Assembly: GCA_000165345.1 (NCBI GenBank)
Contig: CM000436.1
Coordinates: 256,001 to 320,000, forward strand
Reading direction: 5' to 3'
DNA length: 64,000 nt
Shown one piece after another: positions 1,495 to 25,914 of this stretch. The translations under genes were made by a program, and so were the position numbers. Below the pieces are notes generated by a model. The model did no database searches. It worked only from the letters and a program-made list of their open reading frames with translations, and was not told the origin of the DNA. Every line of letters begins with the position of its first letter. Within the stretch, counting starts at the first letter, position 1.

Positions 1495-2019
1495 ATGGCG
1501 AAGGGTTTGAGAAGTAAGGTAAAGAGAAGGTTTCGTACAGCCAAAAGGCTACTGATTAAGAATACTTTAGAATTAAGTAGAAATACCGAAAAGTCTAATG
1601 CTCTAAGAGAAATTGGAGAAGGTACCTATGTACAAAAAGAAATCCCATTGAATGCCTTCTTGTATCCAGAAAGTAAAAATGCTATTTTTCCACAAAAAAA
1701 CAGAAATGCATCTATTGACTTCAGATCAGAATCTATAAGTAGTATTGCAGGATATATGGGCCCAGGGAATAGACGTAAATACTATCCAGGTGAGGAGATA
1801 CCAATTCTAAGTATTATGGGAGACGGAAATATGACAAATAGTAGAGATGTTGAAATTATAAACACAACTAATATGAATATGAATATTGATAGTACAAATC
1901 AGGTTAAAGATGTAGTTGAGTTCGAAACCGAAAAGAGGCAGGTATCTATTCCTGTGATCAAGGATTCAATTAAAGGAGCATATGAGGCAAGCTTTAAGAA
2001 GAAAAGCAAAAAGAAATGA
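1495..2019 (+). CDS. hypothetical small basic protein (Lys/Arg-rich N- and C-termini), 174 aa
   Basis: Clean ATG ORF (MAKGLRSKVKRRFRTAKR...KKKSKKK). No domain recognised by eye. Sits downstream of a GGCGGG/CCGCC box at about 1161-1195. Confidence 0.5.
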   Translation: MAKGLRSKVKRRFRTAKRLLIKNTLELSRNTEKSNALREIGEGTYVQKEIPLNAFLYPESKNAIFPQKNRNASIDFRSESISSIAGYMGPGNRRKYYPGEEIPILSIMGDGNMTNSRDVEIINTTNMNMNIDSTNQVKDVVEFETEKRQVSIPVIKDSIKGAYEASFKKKSKKK

Positions 2020-2078
2020 GTAAAAGATCTTGTAAAAATTAATATATTTACTTTATTTCAAAGTTAGTAAGCTTTAAT

Positions 2079-3680
2079 TTAAAATAGCCTATAGATATAT
2101 GAATTAGACTGAGTAACATATCTTACCCATCTATAGTTATTTTGCTGTCCATATTTCTCTGAAATCTTTAGATACTTAACTTGTATGTTAGAAAGGTTAA
2201 ACATTGGGATTTCGAAGTTGAGGAAGAGAGGACCAATTTTTTTTCTTATAGAATTTAAATCGGTTTCAAAAGAAAGGCAGATCTTTGATTTTAAAATAAT
2301 CTCTGTGCCACCATGAATCTTCTTGATTTTCCAGATAATCCTCTGGTTCTTATCATCATATTGAGAAGTTTGTTGAACTGGAATAAGAGGATGGATAGTT
2401 TCTAAGGAAACTGTATTGGTTTTTTCTGGTAGTGGACATAGCATAGTTAGATTTGTAGCAAAAGATGATTCAGGAATATCAACCTTAAGTTTAATAACAA
2501 AGTCAAATTTGGATGAATTCTTTTTTGAATTACCCGAAGCCTCAATCAAAGTTGTGAATTTAAAAGGTATATTAAGGGTGCCTTTTGAGATTCTATAATT
2601 CATTACAATAATTTCACCTTCTGGAGGCTTTAATGTAAGTACTTTATCATTTAAAAACTCATTCACATTAACGCTTTCATGGAAATTACAATCATCAATT
2701 ATAGTACTTGGGGCATAGTTGAAAAGATTATTAGATTCTGAAGGGCTGAGTTCGTCATCCTCTTTTAAAACGATACTATTAGAAAACCCTAAAGTAAGTT
2801 CAGGTTGACCTATTAAATAACTTTTCATAAGTATTCCTCCTTCAATATTAAAGCGAGAAATTTCACCCAAATGATTTAAAACCAAGCTAATTCTCTCAAA
2901 TATATCCACAAAAACCTCATTATTTCTGTCAACACATGGACCTGTATTTCCAAGAAAAGTCATTACCTTATTTTCTGCTGAATTATTGGAAACTGTAGTC
3001 ATTGGATTTATTGGTCTCTGAGAAGCATTACTAGAAATAGTTTTTGGACCACTAAAGTTGTTTGTATTATTTGAAATATTACCATGATTTTGTGTAGGTT
3101 TGCCACTAGAAGAAGGAAAGATTCCAATTGGAAGCATGGATAAACCTCCTGATACAGTACTAGTTAATCCAAGTATTTGATTTGTACCAAAAACTTCATT
3201 TCTTCTATTAAAGTTCTCAGAGCTTAGGACTTTTGTTTCGTTATATACACAATATTTAAGTTGATTTGTACTAACTATTTGAGGGTATCCATAGTCAATT
3301 ATTTCGTCAATTAATTCATAAACAAGGATAAAATTTCGTCTTATTGAATCCTCGTTAACTGTCCCACAGAAATCTCTAACTAACTTGATTATTCTGTACA
3401 AAAGTTCAATAATGTATGTTGGACTTACATCATAATAGCTAGTTAATACAAAGAAAAGACTGCTTTGGCGTAGATATATATATATCTGTTCTTCAAAGTA
3501 GATTACTGTTGGTTCATCACTGTTTCCCTGCTTGATTTTTTTGTAGAACACATCTTGAATTTTGATAAGACTCTCACTTAAGCTTTTCTCTCCACGGAAA
3601 TCCCTAAATATGATTGTATCTCCCCTCACATTTAAGATTAAAAACTGGCTGATCATTCCTTCCTTCTCTATTTTCTTCAC
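2079..3680 (-). CDS. AP4M: adaptor protein complex AP-4 mu subunit
   Basis: N-terminus MISQFLILNVRGDTIIFRDFRGE...YDVSPTYIIELLYRIIKLVRDFCGTVNEDSIRRNFILVYELIDEIIDYGYPQ matches the AP-4 mu longin domain. C-terminus ...RWVRYVTQSNSYIYRLF matches the mu-homology domain end. The likely true start is the internal Met at 3656 (MISQF...); the ORF's first Met at 3680 adds MKKIEKEG. Confidence 0.85.
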   Translation of the reverse strand: MKKIEKEGMISQFLILNVRGDTIIFRDFRGEKSLSESLIKIQDVFYKKIKQGNSDEPTVIYFEEQIYIYLRQSSLFFVLTSYYDVSPTYIIELLYRIIKLVRDFCGTVNEDSIRRNFILVYELIDEIIDYGYPQIVSTNQLKYCVYNETKVLSSENFNRRNEVFGTNQILGLTSTVSGGLSMLPIGIFPSSSGKPTQNHGNISNNTNNFSGPKTISSNASQRPINPMTTVSNNSAENKVMTFLGNTGPCVDRNNEVFVDIFERISLVLNHLGEISRFNIEGGILMKSYLIGQPELTLGFSNSIVLKEDDELSPSESNNLFNYAPSTIIDDCNFHESVNVNEFLNDKVLTLKPPEGEIIVMNYRISKGTLNIPFKFTTLIEASGNSKKNSSKFDFVIKLKVDIPESSFATNLTMLCPLPEKTNTVSLETIHPLIPVQQTSQYDDKNQRIIWKIKKIHGGTEIILKSKICLSFETDLNSIRKKIGPLFLNFEIPMFNLSNIQVKYLKISEKYGQQNNYRWVRYVTQSNSYIYRLF

Positions 3681-6050: not shown

Positions 6051-6690
6051 ACTAATTAATAATTTTAATTATTAACTTTGTAACAATATTAATTGTTTAA
6101 GGAATTTTATTTATTTATTTACATATAAATATTTTATTTATTAATTTTTTTTCCACATTAATTAATTACATGAAAATTACGTGTTTAAATGCAAATTTGC
6201 AAATTATTTTTGTTTAATTGCAATACCGTTGCATGCATCCATGTGGATTGAATAGCCGGTATATAATTTTTAGATCAAGAAATACTTTGTAAAGAAGGAA
6301 AAAATGACATAGAGTAGAATCACTTTAAGTATTGAAATGCGTATAGGGTATGGATTTGTTTTGTTTTTTTCTTCAAGTAAAAAAAAAAAAATGGGTTTTT
6401 TAATCCTTAAAAAATTTAATTTTCAACTATAGAAAAATATTAATTATAATTAGAGAAAATCCCCCAACCGCAAATTACAAAAAAAAAAATGTATTGGCGC
6501 CAAAAGCACACAAATACTAATTAGCAACTTTTTGTATAATTTAGACCAAATAAATAATTTGAGGATTGTGCTTAGTTGTTAGATGCCATAATTAGTATAA
6601 CTTTGAGAGCACAGTATACTTCTATGATCTAGCTCTAGCATCAAAAGGTTTCCTTTAAGAGATTTTAGATTGATATGCATTCAGTTCGAG

Positions 6691-17600: not shown

Positions 17601-20600
17601 TTAGATTCTACTGATAAGTTATTTGAATTTTATACCCGAGAATTAAAAAATAAGGAACGGAATATAGTTTGTTTGTCCCAACTATACTTAATTCAGCATA
17701 TTTTTGATACAAACTTAACAAGTGAATACGAGGTAAAAGATTCTTTAACTAAAAATAAAGATCCTCAAGCAAATTTAGTATTTAATATTTTTTCTATAGT
17801 ACTTCAAATTGATAAGAGAATTCAAGATAATCTTGAAGATTTGGATGAAGTAAATGACCAAATTCTGCAAAAGGCAGATAGCAAAATTAAGCTATTAATT
17901 AATAATAAGGTTGGAGCTCAGCTAATATTCCAATGGATTAAAAATCCTAATATTGGCGATCAAGAAATTTATGGAATTAAAACTAACATTTTAATAAGAT
18001 GGATAATTCACATTTCTAAACAATTATTACATCCAATTATGAATGAAAATGAGATTAGTAGCAGATTAAAGTATTTAACCAAAGAAAGGATTAAAGCTTC
18101 CTTGCTACTAGACGACTCTGCTTCAAACGATACAATTTCTATTGTAATTTCTCTTTTAACATTTTGTTATGGCTATTTTCCAGATCAAGTTATTCTATTC
18201 ATTTTAAAAAATATTAATCGAGAAGAAATTCAGGATCTTGAATATCCAGGAATATGTAATATTTCTGAAGATATTGCTCAAAAGATTAATAATTATGGAA
18301 AATCATCTGCTTTTGGAAATCTTTCCAATACAAGAAATATCCCAACTAGAGTACTTCTTTATTATTCATCCATACTTTTGGATAATACCAGTAGAAATGG
18401 TAAAAAGAATATTGATTTATTTCAAGATTATTCCTTCCAAAAAGACAAAATTGTTGCTAAGATTATTTCCATATTAGTTAATTCAAATTTAAGACGTAGA
18501 GAATGGCTACTTTGGCATTCAAAAAATTTTGACAAAATTGAACTTTTTTCAAATTCATTACATAATCTTATTCAATCAAGAGGAGAAATAGGAAACTATC
18601 AAGAACAGAAAAAAATTGAAGAGCAAATCTTTAAATGGATCTATGATCGAAATATCGATTATTCAAGATATCAGGTCAGTTCTAGACCTTTTTCAATATC
18701 TTCTTTTTACTTTGGATTGGTTGATTTCTCAATTTCCCCTATTTTAGAGAAATCTATATTGCAAAATGTATCATTTATTAAGTTTCAGATCAAACAATTA
18801 CTAAATCTTAGCTCTATAAAACCCAACACTTGTACTGAATATGAACTTGAGGATTTCATTCAAAAGCTAAGTATGAACTTGAATTTGTTCATCTTTTCAA
18901 TTCAAAGTTATATCGAAAGAAACGATCAACTTAATTTTGCTGATATACTTACTATTGAAGAAGTTACTTTACCTTTAAAACTATTTTTAAATATTAATAG
19001 TGATGAATTTGATTTCAGATTTAAGGCAATTATTGGCCATTTAACTTTAAAATTCATTTCAGTTTTCTTTAAGCCAAGCTGGAGAGAGTCAAACTTTCAA
19101 GAATTAAATAAATCGAATCCGTCCTCACAAGTATTTGGAATTAAAACTTTTACAAGTCTTGATAACTTTGGAAAAAGTTCAAACAGAAAAACTTCAAGTT
19201 TATTATTTATTCTAGTAAATCTGATGGATGAATTAACAAAGTGGTAAGTTTTTTAAATATACTAATTTAATCAAATAGACGAATATATCTTTATATTTGT
19301 ATATACTTTTTTTAATTATTTTTTACCTTCAGGATGAATGAAATTTTCAATATGAACAACTTTGACAAGTTTTATGTATCTGCCTATTTAGAAACGTTTT
19401 CAAGTTTGGTTTTGGAATTAGGAATTAGAGATAACATCCTTTCTCAAAGTATGGATATCGGATCAGGAGGTGAAAAAGGAGAAATATTTAAACTCAAGAT
19501 AAGGCAATCACTAATCAATTTAGTTCAAAGTGACTCTACTGTTTCTTTAATAGAGAAGATATTAAACTATATCATTATTTGCAGAAGAAAAGGTAACAAT
19601 TTGGATGCGGACAAATCAAGTTGTTTAATGGGTATCTCCATATTACTACTTTCCATGTTATCAAGTAAAATCAAAATATTCAGAACTAATGGAAGATTAG
19701 AGAGTCTTATTGATTCTATTTTAGCTCATCCAACATTGTTATTTCATGCTGAAAAAAGCTCAAAATGTGGATTAAATTCTCGCTTTTCGTCTGATGAATA
19801 TGATAATTCGCTTATAGATAACAATACAACGAGTTTCAATCTATGTAACTATTGTCTTAATTTTGGCTTCAATCATAACATAGAAGATATTAAATTAATA
19901 ACCAATGTTTCTATTATTGTGGCATTGCTACGTCTAAATCATGTAAATAGTAGAGCAATATCAAAAAGTAACTTAATTAAAGATATTTTTCTACAAAGCA
20001 TTTCAGGGATTTTAAATACAAATAATAAAGCATCATCAGTAAGTCATGGATATATGGGAATTATATTATCGTCAATATATTTATCATATGACCAAATTCA
20101 GTCTTTGAGCCTTGTACATAATTTGTATATTCAAAAATTCCTTGTAAAGGAGTTTGTTTGTGATGTTTTAAACTTTGACAAGAATCCAGTTGAAAATTTA
20201 AATCTTTCTCCATGTATGATATTTCATTATTCTGTATTATTTTCATATTTGGTTTTTATATTGAAGACTACTCCTTGGTGGCTTAATATTTCTGATTTGA
20301 TCAATCTAACATTCATAAATAAACTTGGAAAGATTTATAAATCATTACAAACTTCCGCAATTATTTATAATGATGAGAATGACAATATTGGAGAATATTT
20401 AATTAGCTTGACAGAGATTCTTTTAAAAATTGTACAAGAAACAATAATGGCTCGCTCTAACTCATCTTCTAGTTATATTCAAGGTAAGTTAATTTCTGAA
20501 TAATTGAAATATATATAGAGCGTGTTTTAAAATATTTGATTAACTTTTTCTTTCTGATTAAGATGAAAAAAACAATGCAGAAAATAACGGAGTAATTATT

Positions 20601-20876
20601 AAATTAATACAAGAAATCCTTAAAAACCAAGAAAATGAAAATATTCAAGACTATAATATAACATTAGTAAGAGAACATGCAAATTCAAGAAATGGAAATA
20701 TTCTTAAAAATACCTCAAATTGTAGAAATAATAGAGGATCTGGATGCTTTATCTGTGGTTTTAAATACAAATTCAAATACTTTGAAAGTAAAGAGAGTTT
20801 TATAAGTAACTTTTTTATTTCTCAAGTATTAAAGTTTTCAACTATGGAGATATTTAAAAGAATTATTGAAAATTAG
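14614..20876 (+). CDS. very large alpha-helical protein of unknown function, 7 exons, ~1940 aa (joins ORF-track ORFs 15336..19247 and 19334..20503 plus 5 further exons)
   Basis: Exons 14614..14754, 14821..14895, 14956..15057, 15139..15264, 15336..19243, 19333..20483, 20563..20876. Every donor is GTAAGT. Acceptors are TATAG, TTCAG, AATTAG, TTTAG, CTTCAG, TTAAG. Exons 1-4 are all phase 0 and open. Exon 5 ends ...ACA AAG TG|gtaagt and exon 6 starts cag|G ATG, which restores TGG and continues in frame. Exon 6 ends CAA G|gtaagt and exon 7 (G+AT GAA AAA...) is a 104-codon open frame to TAG at 20874-20876. No conserved domain recognised. Confidence 0.65.
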
Positions 20877-21137
20877 TATCAAATTCAAATATTTACTCAA
20901 AATTTTGAATTTTTTATTCTTAATATATATTGCTAAAATTTCCAACCCACTCATAATATTTGCAAGTGGACAAATGCATGCAATGCAAATGCATGCATGT
21001 GCATGTATTTGCATTATGACATCCAAGCCTGACAAAAAGAAAATGTATATTATACATAGGAGGAAAAAAAATCAAGTTTTAACAATATAAACAAACATAT
21101 TAAAGATAGACAGAATTAATTATTCAAAAGGTTAAAA

Positions 21138-23571
21138 ATGGAATCAAGAATATTAAAGTTTGAGAGTAAGTTTCAAATAATAAAAAGAGGAGATTATAGT
21201 AGAAAATAAAATTTCTGCTTATTGGAAATATATCATTGAAGGAAAAAAATTTTAGAATAAAGTGATTAACTATTTTTCTGTTTCTTTTTAATAAATTTAG
21301 CTAGTGCAGGTAGATTGTGGATTGCAGGAACATATGGAATAAACAAAAAACCTTTTAACAAGAAGATAATTCAGGAAGTAGTCGTAAAGTCAGAAGTGGC
21401 AGATTTTGTTACTTTGGCGAATAATATGAGTTATTCTTTAAGAGTTTCAGCTACACTGTTGAGAGGATTGATGCTCATTTATGATAAGCAATGGATATAT
21501 TTGGGTAAGTTTGGCCTTTAATTCCAATTTGGGGATGATTCTTATAAGAAAGTTTAATACTAAATCGTTATTTTATCTCATTCAGAATCAGATTTGGATA
21601 ATTTATATTTGAGGGTAAGTCTAAAAATAATTACAAATTTTTTTTTGATCATCATTATTAACAAATCATTACTAAAAATAGTTTAGGGAAGGAAGAAATG
21701 AGACAGAAAATAAAAATAATTGTAACACATTAGTTAGGAGGAATAGAGGAGAAAAGAAGAATTCTTTATTGACTGAGTTAATTTCAATAAATTCATCACT
21801 TAGTTTGAATGGCGATAATTTGAGTAATAGCAGTAATAATGATCGAAATGGTGAATTGGTTTTGTCATTGGATGCTGAGAATTTTGTTTTGGACTTAGCA
21901 AACAAAAGTATTGATGAATTGAATTTTGAAAATATTCTTTTCAAAGGTAATGGAAATAGTTCAAATATTGGAAGGATTGAGGATATTACTCTTCCTGAAA
22001 TTAATAGAAATAAATCCAACTTGTCAAGAGATTTTGGAGTTGAGCAGGATTTCGTAAGTCTAGAGGAGAGTAATAATGAAGAAAATGAAGATGAAAGTGG
22101 AAATAGTGGAGGAAAAAATAGCATAAAAAATTCATCAGATAGAAGAGGAGAAAGCCAGATAGTACTATGGTCTTCAATAAATAATGAGGATTTTATGTTT
22201 CAGGGAGAAGAAAGTGAAGAATTACTTGAACAATTAGAAAGAAAAAAGTTAAATGCTGAAAGAAGCAAATTATCGGATCGAGATAAAGAAAATCAGTTTA
22301 TGGAGGAGACTACTGAGATAGTTTGTGAAGCTCAAAATAGAGGAGAAAATAGAAAAAGATCTAGATGTTTAAGTCATCTTGATGTTGATTTAAAGTTTAA
22401 AGGAATTAGCTCTATTAATAAGAATCAGCTTGAAATGTTGGTATTTAATGATGAAATAATTGCTGGTATGGATGAAAGATTAAGAGGTTGGGACTCATAT
22501 AAGTGGTGGCAAACAGAAACCCAAAAAAATGAGAAAAGTCAATTTCTAATAAAGTTCCAAAGCCTTGCAATACGTAGTATGAAAAAATCCAAGAGAATCT
22601 CAGTATCAAACCAAAATGGTAGTAATTTAGACATGTATGAAGCAATAGAAAAACATAGAGGTGAATATGATACAGGAGTTGAGTATAGTAACGTTGATTT
22701 GGGATTTGACCATTTTAATTTGGATAATGGTTTTGTTGGATCTCCAAGTAATCGTTTTAGAAATGGCCGTGATACTATTGAAAGCTCAGTTAATTATTAT
22801 GGAGATGGTGCAAATTCTTCAGGTGGAGCAAGATTACAAAGTGGAAGAGAGTCTATGATTTTCTCAGATAGTAGACGAGGTTCCAATGATGGAGTTAGGT
22901 TATCAACCATGTTAGAAACTGGGTCAGTATTATCATACAATAGTTCTCCTTTCCAGTTTGAAAAAAACTTAATGGGTATCCGAAGAGATTCGTCTAATTC
23001 TGAATTACAAAGAATTGTGAGATCTGGAAGGCTTAGTGGATCAATAGTAGGTAATAGCTACGATAAACAATACAGAACAAATTCTATTGCAACCAGTATT
23101 AGTGATATATTTTGTATGGAGGAAATTAAATCATCTAATTGGAGCAAAAGTGGAATCACTACAAGTAGTGGAACTTATAATTTGAAGACTTATACTGTTC
23201 AGAAATTCATTGCAACTAGAATGAAAGAAATTAGAGAAATTAGAAAGATTAATGAAGAAAATGGCTACTTAATGGACAATAATACTTCAAACAAAGAAAA
23301 TATAGGTAGCCATAATAGAGAGGAAGAAAATTCTGGAACTTTCAATAAGAAAAAAGACAATAGAAATGTTGAATCTGATGATAATGAAGAAGAAATGTCA
23401 ATTTACTTAAGTGAATTATTACCAGAAAAAACTGCTACAAAATGTACTGCTGCAGTTTTTTTCTATCATCTATTAGTTCTTGCAACATATAATGAAATCA
23501 AACTCACTCAAAGTACACCTGGGGGTAATATTAAGATTACAAAAACTAGCTCATTTAATGAAGAAAGTTAA
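21138..23571 (+). CDS. RAD21: Rad21/Rec8-like cohesin kleisin subunit, 4 exons, ~717 aa
   Basis: Exons 21138..21165 (MESRILKFE), 21301..21504, 21586..21614, 21682..23571. Donors GTAAGT x3. Phases 1/1/0 join cleanly. The N-terminus ...SAGRLWIAGTYGINKKPFNKKIIQEVVVKSEVADFVTLANNMSYSLRVSATLLRGLMLIYDKQWIYL matches the Rad21_Rec8_N domain (LAKIWLAAHWEKKLTKAQ...[24 protein letters not shown]). The C-terminus KCTAAVFFYHLLVLATYNEIKLTQSTPGGNIKI matches the Rad21/Rec8 C-terminal winged helix ([27 protein letters not shown]). The ORF track shows only fragments, with TTG 'starts' at 21315 and 21769. Confidence 0.75.
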
Positions 23572-23943
23572 GAATAAAGCTGGTATTGTATTAATTTATA
23601 TATTTTATGGGTACTATTTAAGAAAAAGGCGGTAACTTCTGGCAAATTTATTGTCAATATTTTAGCCTAATAAATTACGTGTTATATTAATATTTATATT
23701 ATACAGGAATAATTAAAACTTGATCACGAAAACAAAAATCAATTTATTAAAAATTGAAAGGAAAAAATAAACTTAAAGTGGGAGATTATTTTCTTCATTA
23801 CCTTTTTGTTATTTTTTGGAGATATTTATTATAGTTTATAAAAATAAGGGATTGAAGGATAATTAAAGAATTCAATCATTGACTGAGATTAATATAATAA
23901 TATCAAACATTATTAATTTGAATAAGTACATTTAAATTAAAGA

Positions 23944-25914
23944 ATGAATCGGAAAACACTTATAGAAAGAAGAGAAGCACTTGAGAATCTTTTAAAGAGA
24001 AGGTTTTTTATAGCTCCATCTTTTGAAATATATGGAGGAGTAGCAGGACTATTTGACTATGGTCCTCCAGGATGTGCATTAAAGTCAGAAGTTGAGAGTT
24101 TCTGGAGAAGACATTTTGTATTAGCTGAAGATATGTTGGAGATTAGTGCAACTTGTTTAACTCCATATAACCCTTTAAAGGCATCGGGTCATGTTGATAG
24201 ATTTACTGATTCAATGATAACAGATATAAAAACTAATGAATATTATAGAGCTGATAAAGTTTTAGAAGAGTATGTTGAAAATAGATTAAAGGAAAAATCT
24301 TCAAATCCCCCAAAGTCAGAGGAAGAGAAGAATGAATTAGAAACTTTGGGAATTAAGGCAGGTTCAATGAGTATTGATGAGATAAAAGAAAGTTTAAATA
24401 AGTACCAAATTAAGCCACCAAGTGGTGGAGAATGGTCAGAACCATATCCATTCAATTTAATGTTCAGAACAAAAATTGGCCCTAAAGAGGTTGAAGGAAA
24501 GAATGATAGTGTTGGTTTTATGAGACCTGAAACCGCACAAGGAATTTTTGTGAATTTTAAAAGATTATATGAATATAATGGAAAAAAACTACCATTTTCA
24601 GTAGCTCAAATTGGTTTGGGATTTAGAAATGAAATTGCTCCTAGAAATGGACTTTTAAGAGTTAGAGAATTCCAGATGGCAGAAATTGAACATTTTATAC
24701 ATCCTGATAGAAAGGATCATCCTAAATTTGATGATGTTGCCTTAAAATGTCTTCCATTATATTCAAGTAAGACTCAACTTAATAATGGTGAAATTGAGAG
24801 AAATATTACATTAAAAGAAGCAGTACATGGTGAAGAAAAGATTATTAATAATGAAACTTTAGCTTATTTCTTATCTAGAACTTATGATTTTCTTATTTCT
24901 ATTGGTATTAATCCAGATGGAATAAGATTTAGACAACATTTAAGTACTGAAATGGCACATTATGCAAGCGATTGCTGGGATGCTGAAGTATTGACATCAT
25001 ATGGTTGGATTGAATGTGCTGGTCATGCTGATAGATCATGTTATGACTTATTACAACATTCAAAAGCAACAAAAACTGATTTATTTGCATCTGAAAAGTA
25101 TGATGAGCCTCAATTCAAGACAGTTTTAGTATTAACATTAAATAAACCATTAATAGGAAAAACATTTAAACAGGAGGCATCATTAGTAACAGAAGCATTA
25201 CAAGAGATTGCAAATAAAGGAGATATTAGTTTCCAGGAAAAGCTCAATCAATCTAATAAGGCTCTTTTAAAATATAAATCATGCGAAAATGGAAAAGAAT
25301 ATCAATGGGAGATATCATCAGAAATGGCCAAATTTGAATTCCAGACAAAGAAAGTAACAGAAGAGCAATTTACTCCTGGTGTTATTGAACCTTCATTTGG
25401 AATTGGAAGAATAATATATTGTTTATTGGAACATAGTTTTAAAATTAGAGAGGATTTATCTGAAATTCAAGATCAGAGTACTGGTAATAAAAATACAAAT
25501 AATTCACCTGATAACGAAATGCAGAGAAGTTATTTATCTTTACCAGCTTTAATTGCTCCAGTAAAATGTTCAATATTACCTATAAGTTCTAATGCAATTT
25601 TTAATGATTTGATAAATCTTTTACATAAAAGTTTTATTAATCATGGTATTTCATGCAAAGTAGATACATCATCTGCTTCAATTGGAAGAAGATATGCAAG
25701 AACTGATGAAATTGGTATTCCTTTTGGTATTACTATAGATTTTCAAAGTGTAAAAGATGATACTGTAACATTAAGAGAGAGAGATTCAATGAAACAAGTT
25801 AGAATATCATCATCAGAAGTTCCATCTGTAATTTCAAAGATTATTAATCAACAAATTACTTGGGAAAATGTTTTAGAGAATTATCCATTATTCACTCAAC
25901 AATCAAATGAATAG
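23944..25914 (+). CDS. GARS: glycyl-tRNA synthetase (class II, eukaryotic dimeric type), 656 aa
   Basis: FEIYGGVAGLFDYGPPGCALKSEVESFWRRHFVLAEDMLEISATCLTPYNPLKASGHVDRFTD and downstream class-II motifs match eukaryotic GlyRS closely. Single exon with ATG start. Confidence 0.95.
   Translation: MNRKTLIERREALENLLKRRFFIAPSFEIYGGVAGLFDYGPPGCALKSEVESFWRRHFVLAEDMLEISATCLTPYNPLKASGHVDRFTDSMITDIKTNEYYRADKVLEEYVENRLKEKSSNPPKSEEEKNELETLGIKAGSMSIDEIKESLNKYQIKPPSGGEWSEPYPFNLMFRTKIGPKEVEGKNDSVGFMRPETAQGIFVNFKRLYEYNGKKLPFSVAQIGLGFRNEIAPRNGLLRVREFQMAEIEHFIHPDRKDHPKFDDVALKCLPLYSSKTQLNNGEIERNITLKEAVHGEEKIINNETLAYFLSRTYDFLISIGINPDGIRFRQHLSTEMAHYASDCWDAEVLTSYGWIECAGHADRSCYDLLQHSKATKTDLFASEKYDEPQFKTVLVLTLNKPLIGKTFKQEASLVTEALQEIANKGDISFQEKLNQSNKALLKYKSCENGKEYQWEISSEMAKFEFQTKKVTEEQFTPGVIEPSFGIGRIIYCLLEHSFKIREDLSEIQDQSTGNKNTNNSPDNEMQRSYLSLPALIAPVKCSILPISSNAIFNDLINLLHKSFINHGISCKVDTSSASIGRRYARTDEIGIPFGITIDFQSVKDDTVTLRERDSMKQVRISSSEVPSVISKIINQQITWENVLENYPLFTQQSNE

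Follow-up and report, generated by a model that had tools for sequence, protein, structure and literature searches.

Meiosis-specific kleisins of the Rec8 type, known from fission yeast, budding yeast and animals and as SYN1/DIF1 from Arabidopsis, consist of an N-terminal Rad21_Rec8_N domain, a long disordered linker and a C-terminal Rad21_Rec8 winged helix. For Cryptosporidium, the inventory of Malik 2008 (PMC2488364) lists Rad21 as present and Rec8 as absent, reports no Scc3 or Pds5, and proposes that Rad21 does the job of Rec8 in protists. Tetrahymena, also an alveolate, uses one kleisin for both mitosis and meiosis (PMC3610610), and mammalian RAD21L and Caenorhabditis elegans COH-3/4 are meiotic kleisins particular to their lineages, which originated in separate duplications (PMC3172173, PMC4174578). 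Here we describe a four-exon gene on the forward strand of Cryptosporidium parvum, cgd8_1020, which occupies positions 21138-23571 of the window, by which we mean the whole stretch of 64,000 nucleotides analysed (contig CM000436.1 of assembly GCA_000165345.1, positions 256,001 to 320,000; 27% GC). The encoded protein is a Rad21/Rec8-family alpha-kleisin. We consider it probable that this protein is a meiotic kleisin that works like Rec8, beside a constitutive second kleisin encoded by cgd7_290; it cannot, however, be assigned to the Rec8 orthologues of animals, fungi and plants.

Identity and stage-specific expression of cgd8_1020

The sequence around the gene is identical over 8434/8434 bp to C. 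parvum chromosome 8 in assemblies CP029787.1, CP141125.1 and CP044415.1 (approximately 266-274 kb), and in each of them the gene covers an identical span of 2434 bp. The open reading frame (ORF) immediately downstream, at 23944-25914, is glycyl-tRNA synthetase. Because the adjacency of cgd8_1020 and cgd8_1030 (glycyl-tRNA synthetase) in Oberstaller 2013 matches the gene order of the window, we assign the locus to cgd8_1020, which carries the name 'Rad21/Rec8-like' in the tables of Tandel 2019. The initial annotation had recognized a parasite with an obligate sexual cycle and a spliced member of the Rad21/Rec8 family, and it was right on both counts. When the exons are joined, the coding sequence of 2151 nucleotides is in frame and yields a protein of 716 amino acids (aa), in which both terminal domains score above the curated Pfam cut-offs: Rad21_Rec8_N (PF04825) at aa 4-96 with 36.6 bits (cut-off 23.1, E 5.5e-9), and Rad21_Rec8 (PF04824) at aa 664-710 with 32.4 bits (cut-off 22.7, E 5.6e-8). 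The initial annotation had named failure of these profile searches on the assembled protein as a refutation, and both searches succeed.

We propose that the protein works like Rec8 because of its expression pattern, which is available as log2 counts per million (CPM) from sorted cells in supplementary file 4 of Tandel 2019 (PMC6877471). Average values for cgd8_1020 are 0.96 in asexual stages in vitro, 7.58 in females in vitro and 7.50 in females in vivo, with a log2 fold change (FC) of 6.62 for females versus asexual stages. The four asexual samples give 0.74, 2.29, 0.23 and 0.58 (PMC6877471), and since these values equal those of other undetected genes, cgd8_1020 is at the detection floor in 4/4 asexual samples, with females approximately 100-fold higher. 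The comparison of females in vitro with females in vivo gives a log2 FC of -0.08; therefore, female-specific transcription precedes fertilisation. The same study counts cohesins among 37 female-upregulated genes in its meiosis category, and reports the same pre-fertilisation expression in females for DMC1, Spo11, HOP2 and HORMA (PMC6877471). It also includes a second 'Rad21/Rec8-like protein', cgd7_290, that is expressed in asexual as well as female stages (PMC6877471), with averages of 6.20 in asexual stages in vitro, 7.53 in females in vitro and 6.50 in females in vivo (log2 FC 1.33). Expression in mitotically dividing stages, as would mark a mitotic kleisin, is thus not seen for cgd8_1020, and the absence from mitotic cells that would mark a Rec8 is found in the published asexual and female samples. 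The initial annotation had left the choice between Rad21 and Rec8 to expression and phylogeny. Expression, which is on in females and off in asexual stages, fits a meiotic kleisin, whereas the protein fails to group with Rec8 by phylogeny. Also present, on the same sheet of supplementary file 6 of Tandel 2019 as both kleisins, is the SCC2-domain protein cgd5_2080 of the cohesin-loader family, a listing which hints that further cohesin machinery is also female-regulated.

These observations are consistent with the following mechanism. If the protein is built into the ring as in the solved cohesins, its helical N-terminal domain (aa ~4-96) would sit on the neck of Smc3 and its C-terminal winged helix (aa ~660-710) on the ATPase head of Smc1. 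The tripartite ring around DNA would then be closed by the disordered linker of approximately 470 residues. The gene is silent in the asexual, mitotic stages, and female gametes transcribe it before fertilisation, at an equal level in culture and in mice. In this manner, the female may provide the zygote in advance with a kleisin dedicated to the meiosis after fertilisation, and mitosis would be served by the constitutive cgd7_290. Release at anaphase might proceed via a separase cut in the linker, for which the best candidate is the genus-invariant IEKHR413|G. The structure of the gene, its family, the fold of the C-terminus, the conservation throughout the genus and the stage-specific expression are established here or in the cited data, as is the listing of a second gene under this product name. 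For cgd8_1020, we infer SMC binding, a meiotic role, a division of labour with cgd7_290, cleavage by separase and promoter control through the motif TGCATGCA.

Phylogenetic position and rival explanations

A Cryptosporidium profile, run exhaustively with HMMER against 1.84 billion representatives, yielded only 25 proteins at E <= 1e-3. The closest relative beyond Cryptosporidium is CEM29315.1 of Vitrella brassicaformis (748 aa, Rad21/Rec8-like), with an E-value of 3e-15. It is followed by two short fragments, P0021 and P0022, and then, at 1e-6 to 1e-3, by proteins of both the Rec8 and the Rad21 type. Two of the best full-length matches after Vitrella are called REC8 by their sources (Sycon, 1.3e-6; Pseudohyphozyma, 1.1e-5). 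We reject the use of these top matches as proof of Rec8 identity, because Rad21-type proteins appear at similar E-values; labels such as 'Rec8 like protein-domain-containing' probably echo nothing more than the Pfam domain name. The two fragments are environmental sequences, one of 78 aa on a 1-kb Logan contig (P0021) and the other of 138 aa on a 4.9-kb JGI contig (P0022), and their N-domains are of the Cryptosporidium/Vitrella type, with LWLAGTVGV(R/K)(R/K)RPF. They cluster with Cryptosporidium (59% bootstrap in the N-domain tree described below) and may derive from gregarines or other early apicomplexans.

Other searches had a smaller yield. A full-length, word-seeded homologue search recovered Cryptosporidium proteins and nothing else, because the family is too divergent for this type of search. 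A word-seeded search with N- and C-domain profiles for labelled Rad21 and Rec8 references gave no matches except short fragments, and a word-seeded search with a 20-sequence alignment that included bait sequences again gave Cryptosporidium and no other genus. The Protein Data Bank (PDB) holds no Rec8 structures, and the supplement of Malik 2008 contains no Cryptosporidium accession.

Relationships were examined with a bootstrapped neighbour-joining tree of 88 N-domain columns and with competing profile hidden Markov models (HMMs). References for both came from a small source-named set, two Rad21 N-termini derived from the PDB and four sequences entered by hand; as some labels are automatic and others were assigned by hand, both tests are weak. 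Cryptosporidium and Vitrella join with 56% bootstrap and sit among Rad21-type and long-branch sequences with less than 30% support. In leave-one-out trials, the two types of HMM separate true members by +16 to +76 bits. The control, Arabidopsis SYN1 (entered by hand), scored -12 bits and thus failed the discriminant, and we treat the HMM test as weak because this control fails too. Several individual positions in Cryptosporidium and Vitrella are of the Rec8 type: the pattern WxAxT-x-G, a three-residue insertion after the conserved tryptophan, Y-x-x-Q rather than Y-x-R-K, and FYH in the winged helix, where Cryptosporidium has the Rec8-type FYH-LLVLA.

Given the assignment of Rad21 and not Rec8 to Cryptosporidium by the 2008 inventory (PMC2488364), and the precedent of a single kleisin in another alveolate, Tetrahymena (PMC3610610), it is appropriate to ask whether cgd8_1020 could be the general mitotic Rad21/Scc1, employed at every division and without a dedicated meiotic role. 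The N-domain HMM scores even lean very slightly towards the Rad21 type, by -4 to -5 bits. We nevertheless regard this as highly improbable, as a general mitotic kleisin should not be at the detection floor in all four asexual samples and approximately 100-fold higher in females, and as another Rad21/Rec8-like gene, cgd7_290, is active in the asexual stages. Furthermore, no E2F-like cell-cycle motif is present within 400 bp upstream of the gene in six species. The expression pattern of the two genes argues against the older view of a Rad21-only system (Malik 2008, PMC2488364). Another possibility is that the protein is indeed a kleisin of the female gamete, with a mainly non-meiotic function (for example, in chromatin loops or transcription in the macrogamete nucleus, which is large and highly active, or in DNA repair), and that cgd7_290 provides meiotic cohesion. 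Cohesin roles beyond cohesion are known in other systems. In addition, cgd8_1020 transcripts are already maximal in unfertilised cultured females, where meiosis never happens (log2 FC -0.08), and those of cgd7_290 show a modest increase in females as well (7.53 versus 6.20). However, the undisputed meiotic genes DMC1, Spo11, HOP2 and HORMA share this pre-fertilisation expression (PMC6877471). Pre-loading is therefore to be expected for a meiotic factor in a haploid parasite, and we judge a mainly non-meiotic function to be unlikely.

A separate question concerns origin. Descent from the ancestral eukaryotic Rec8 as a genuine orthologue that evolves fast, as opposed to an independent duplication of Rad21 in alveolates, would fit the WxAxT-x-G, Y-x-x-Q and FYH-LLVLA positions and the presence of the REC8-named Sycon and Pseudohyphozyma proteins among the best full-length profile matches after Vitrella. 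This origin is possible, although we lean away from it, since the N-domain tree leaves cgd8_1020 outside the Rec8 clade and among long branches with less than 30% support, the Rec8/Rad21 log-odds are near zero, and the profile search returns Rad21-type proteins at comparable E-values. Thus, designation of cgd8_1020 as a Rec8 orthologue is not supported, because of both the tree and the near-zero HMM log-odds.

A number of points weigh against our proposal of a meiotic, Rec8-like kleisin. The neighbour-joining tree contains a clade of animal, fungal and plant Rec8 proteins (63% bootstrap) that excludes Cryptosporidium and Vitrella, and the difference between Rec8-type and Rad21-type HMM scores for the Cryptosporidium domains runs from -9 to +5 bits. 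The evidence on cgd8_1020 consists of gene sequence and transcripts, and the samples cover sorted asexual and female cells; the transcripts in females might support a chromatin function other than meiosis. The second kleisin, cgd7_290, is listed as such by its product name and its expression row in a supplementary table. The main texts of the literature searched make no mention of cgd8_1020 or cgd7_290, nor of cgd8_1010, and the supplements on the AP2-F knock-out do not list cgd8_1020. Finally, the linker sequence IEKHR (aa 409-413) is a candidate separase site by likeness at the level of a motif.

Going further, we tentatively suggest that the Cryptosporidium proteins, that of the chrompodellid Vitrella and the two environmental fragments might form a distinct and very divergent alpha-kleisin lineage, used solely in zygotic meiosis and pre-loaded by the female; this broader idea is speculative. 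If true, a protist lineage would possess a dedicated meiotic kleisin, contrary to the 2008 inventory in which Rec8 was found in no protist; the source of the lineage would then be either a Rec8 that diverged to an extreme degree or a separate duplication.

Spliced gene model, protein anatomy and surroundings

Every exon boundary given in the initial annotation proved accurate, and all three introns have the form GTAAGT...AG. Exon 1 (21138-21165, forward strand, as are all exons and introns; 28 nt) runs from the ATG to a GTAAGT donor and encodes MESRILKFE plus one base; the N-terminus MES(R/K)ILKF is kept in all full-length orthologues. Intron 1 (21166-21300; 135 nt, GTAAGT...TTTAG, 19% GC) is followed by exon 2 (21301-21504; 204 nt), which holds the core of Rad21_Rec8_N (GRLWIAGTYG...LRVSATLLRGLMLIYDKQWIYL). 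Beyond intron 2 (21505-21585; 81 nt, GTAAGT...TTCAG) lies a 29-nt micro-exon, exon 3 (21586-21614), whose peptide ESDLDNLYLR is conserved throughout the genus. Intron 3 (21615-21681; 67 nt, GTAAGT...AATAG) ends at its first AG, which yields the junction ...LR|FREG..., conserved from C. muris to C. parvum. The large exon 4 (21682-23571; 1890 nt including the TAA at 23569-23571) encodes the end of the N-domain, the linker, a conserved helix and the C-terminal winged helix. Read-through of any of the C. parvum introns encounters an in-frame stop (at 21207, 21519 and 21684 for introns 1, 2 and 3, respectively).

Annotated orthologues were mapped to their genomes, and a de novo scan was made for the exon pattern. 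Exons of 28, 204 and 29 nt, GTAAGT donors and the LR|FREG junction recur in five other Cryptosporidium species, or six with C. parvum included. In the order of introns 1, 2 and 3, the lengths of 135/81/67 nt in C. parvum compare with 133/81/69 in C. meleagridis, 149/80/61 in chipmunk genotype I, 67/101/70 in C. ryanae, 75/108/62 in C. bovis and 60/68/67 in C. muris, and the differences between species are mostly not multiples of three. Between C. parvum and C. ryanae, exons 1-3 are 89, 75 and 83% identical with no gaps, whereas introns 1-3 are 41, 49 and 54% identical with many gaps (68 gap columns in intron 1). The notions of a spliced model assembled by chance and of a pseudogene are effectively refuted, given this conservation of exon lengths, splice sites and peptide across Cryptosporidium, the identical protein in three independent annotations, the significance of both Pfam domains in the assembled protein and the abundant cgd8_1020 transcripts in females. 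The deposited models from C. bovis (647 aa; locus positions 1501-3671) and C. canis (710 aa, partial; locus positions 145-2277) read through or mis-splice the small introns, and application of the conserved 28/204/29 architecture to C. bovis yields a cleaner protein of 641 aa with junctions typical of the genus.

For cgd8_1020, public sources already contain the gene model, the name of the family and the fact that expression is female-specific. An exact-sequence look-up finds the 716-aa protein at NCBI as QOY39851.1 (CPATCC_003905), WKS79349.1 (cpbgf_8001010) and WRK33848.1 (CPATCC_0001050), and the C. tyzzeri orthologue bears the name 'Rad21/Rec8-like'. The initial description of the gene as hidden therefore applies to the 2004 Iowa II model, in which the N-terminus was missed, but not to current GenBank annotations, which contain the exact protein. 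Deposited as a 458-aa 'hypothetical protein' (EAK89326.1 / XP_627010.1), that earlier model is a C-terminal fragment that lacks the N-domain and begins at an internal ATG at 22195 (Met259), inside exon 4. Because of this start at Met259, older inventories could find only the C-terminal Rad21/Rec8 domain at the locus. A list of ORFs made with the bacterial code likewise breaks the gene into two pieces with TTG starts, 21315-21521 (68 aa) and 21769-23571 (600 aa), and both starts lie within exons, just as first noted.

The protein is conserved in three blocks among seven species: aa 7-86 in the N-domain, aa 574-600 (WSKSGITTSSGTYNLKTYTVQKFIATR) and aa 680-697 (FFYHLLVLATYNEIKL). The N-domain is indeed distributed over the small exons with their GTAAGT donors, but its label as a winged helix in the initial annotation was misplaced, as the winged helix is the C-terminal domain. 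In solved cohesin structures, the N-terminal kleisin domain is helical and packs on the Smc3 neck. The central block WSKSGITTSSGTYNLKTYTVQKFIATR (conservation 0.93) leads into a long helix at aa 588-613, the two together being encoded at 23140-23259 on the forward strand. Residues T585-F596 are invariant, and the helix, which precedes the winged helix, is modelled with a predicted local distance difference test (pLDDT) score of 75-83. The C-terminal winged helix (aa 660-710; 23398-23550, forward strand) is recognized by both Pfam and the model and is presumably the module that binds the Smc1 head; with its Pfam match ending at residue 710 of 716, it stands at the very end of the large exon, as had been observed by eye.

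Direct sequence matches to the PDB are weak, and all are to Scc1 and RAD21 chains. An AlphaFold 2 model of aa 568-716 has ordered parts with pLDDT of 75-87 and consists of the long helix, a disordered insert and a strand-helix-helix-strand-strand unit (pLDDT 78-87). When this model was compared with the PDB by Foldseek, the top 22 matches were all kleisin C-domains on SMC heads, among them yeast Scc1-C (6qpq/1w1w), human RAD21-C on SMC1A (8ro*) and bacterial ScpA-C (4i99/5h66). These matches have a root-mean-square deviation of 1.2-3.0 Å over 47-63 columns, identities of 24-38% and probabilities of 0.97-1.00, with modest E-values of 2e-3 to 0.15. The full-length AlphaFold model is poor (mean pLDDT 32.8, with residues 1-590 below 50), as expected because the alignment is shallow and the protein is mostly disordered. 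The linker between the terminal domains is long, poorly conserved and disordered, with pLDDT values below 50 in a model that is itself poor. It contains the candidate separase cleavage site, I409-E-K-H-R-G414 (codons at 22645-22662, forward strand), whose ExxR is kept in 7/7 species. The C. parvum protein has six [ED]xxR motifs in total; the five besides this one are kept in 2-5 of the 7 aligned species. Known separase sites that the candidate resembles include SIEVGR, SLEVGR and IEEPSR, and C. parvum, C. hominis and C. muris are reported to have separase genes (PMC4626109).

Upstream of the gene, a pair of TGCATGCA palindromes, at 20975-20982 and 20990-20997 (-163 and -148 from the start codon), is a candidate promoter element of cgd8_1020, to judge from sequence. 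The motif corresponds to the ApiAP2 'AP2_1' motif that is bound by cgd2_3490 (PMC3734150), and a double copy occurs at -146 to -211 of the orthologue in five of the six Cryptosporidium species. The window contains nine matches against 0.34 expected from shuffles (positions 6230, 8373, 16751, 20975, 20990, 37646, 45850, 48053 and 60802), among which the pair upstream of the kleisin gene was examined.

On the reverse strand, an ATG-started ORF of 150 aa (21672-22124) overlaps exon 4, and two of the three gene sets for C. parvum call it as a gene. We reject it as a gene, as its open length varies from 72 to 201 codons across species. It is composed of 56% Leu, Ser and Phe, has no Pfam match, seems to result from the purine-rich composition of the sense strand and is probably spurious. 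The upstream neighbour at approximately 18138-20876 is modelled differently in the three identical C. parvum assemblies, as two genes (1375 and 487 aa), as one gene of 1744 aa or as one gene of 1760 aa, such that at least one model must be wrong. No Rfam family and no tandem repeat was found in 20000-24500.

Value of the locus and comparison with known kleisins

Given that so much about this gene is already public, its discovery value is small, and what we add is the explicit reading of cgd8_1020 as the probable meiotic kleisin of a two-kleisin system, in a divergent lineage common to Vitrella. This reading qualifies the often-repeated claim of protists without a meiotic kleisin. The practical value of the gene lies in the handle it would offer on Cryptosporidium meiosis, which takes place in the host cell straight after fertilisation and is needed to form the transmissible oocyst. 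To our knowledge, this meiosis is not yet reproducible in standard culture. A kleisin active in females but not in asexual stages could serve as a natural marker, and as a knock-out target that separates meiotic from mitotic chromosome segregation, and CRISPR tagging is available in Cryptosporidium.

Among described systems, Rec8 shares the overall plan of two terminal domains and a long disordered linker with cgd8_1020. Further likeness is found in several Rec8-type sequence positions and in expression confined to the sexual stage that enters meiosis, beside a probable constitutive paralogue. Unlike Rec8, cgd8_1020 does not join the Rec8 clade of the N-domain tree, its identity to any Rec8 is approximately 25%, profiles do not discriminate it, and its transcription takes place before fertilisation in a haploid cell, the female gamete, whereas that of Rec8 takes place in a diploid meiocyte. 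The Rad21/Scc1/Mcd1 proteins (6wg3, 8ro*, 1w1w, 6qpq) belong to the same Pfam families and provide the best matches among solved structures, in both sequence and fold, with their C-domains bound to Smc1 heads. However, cgd8_1020 is not expressed in the mitotic asexual stages and lacks the WLAAHW-KKL signature of Rad21-type N-domains. The Vitrella protein CEM29315.1 has WLAGT-G-(K/R) and FYH-LVL in common with Cryptosporidium, but its linker cannot be aligned.

The mammalian RAD21L and nematode COH-3/4 proteins offer a precedent for a meiosis-specific kleisin that need not be an orthologue of Rec8. These proteins coexist with a bona fide Rec8, whereas Cryptosporidium has only two kleisins listed. 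Tetrahymena, with its Rec8 (PMC3610610), is a comparable alveolate with a streamlined cohesin. In contrast to Tetrahymena, Cryptosporidium appears to divide the work between two kleisins that differ in stage expression.

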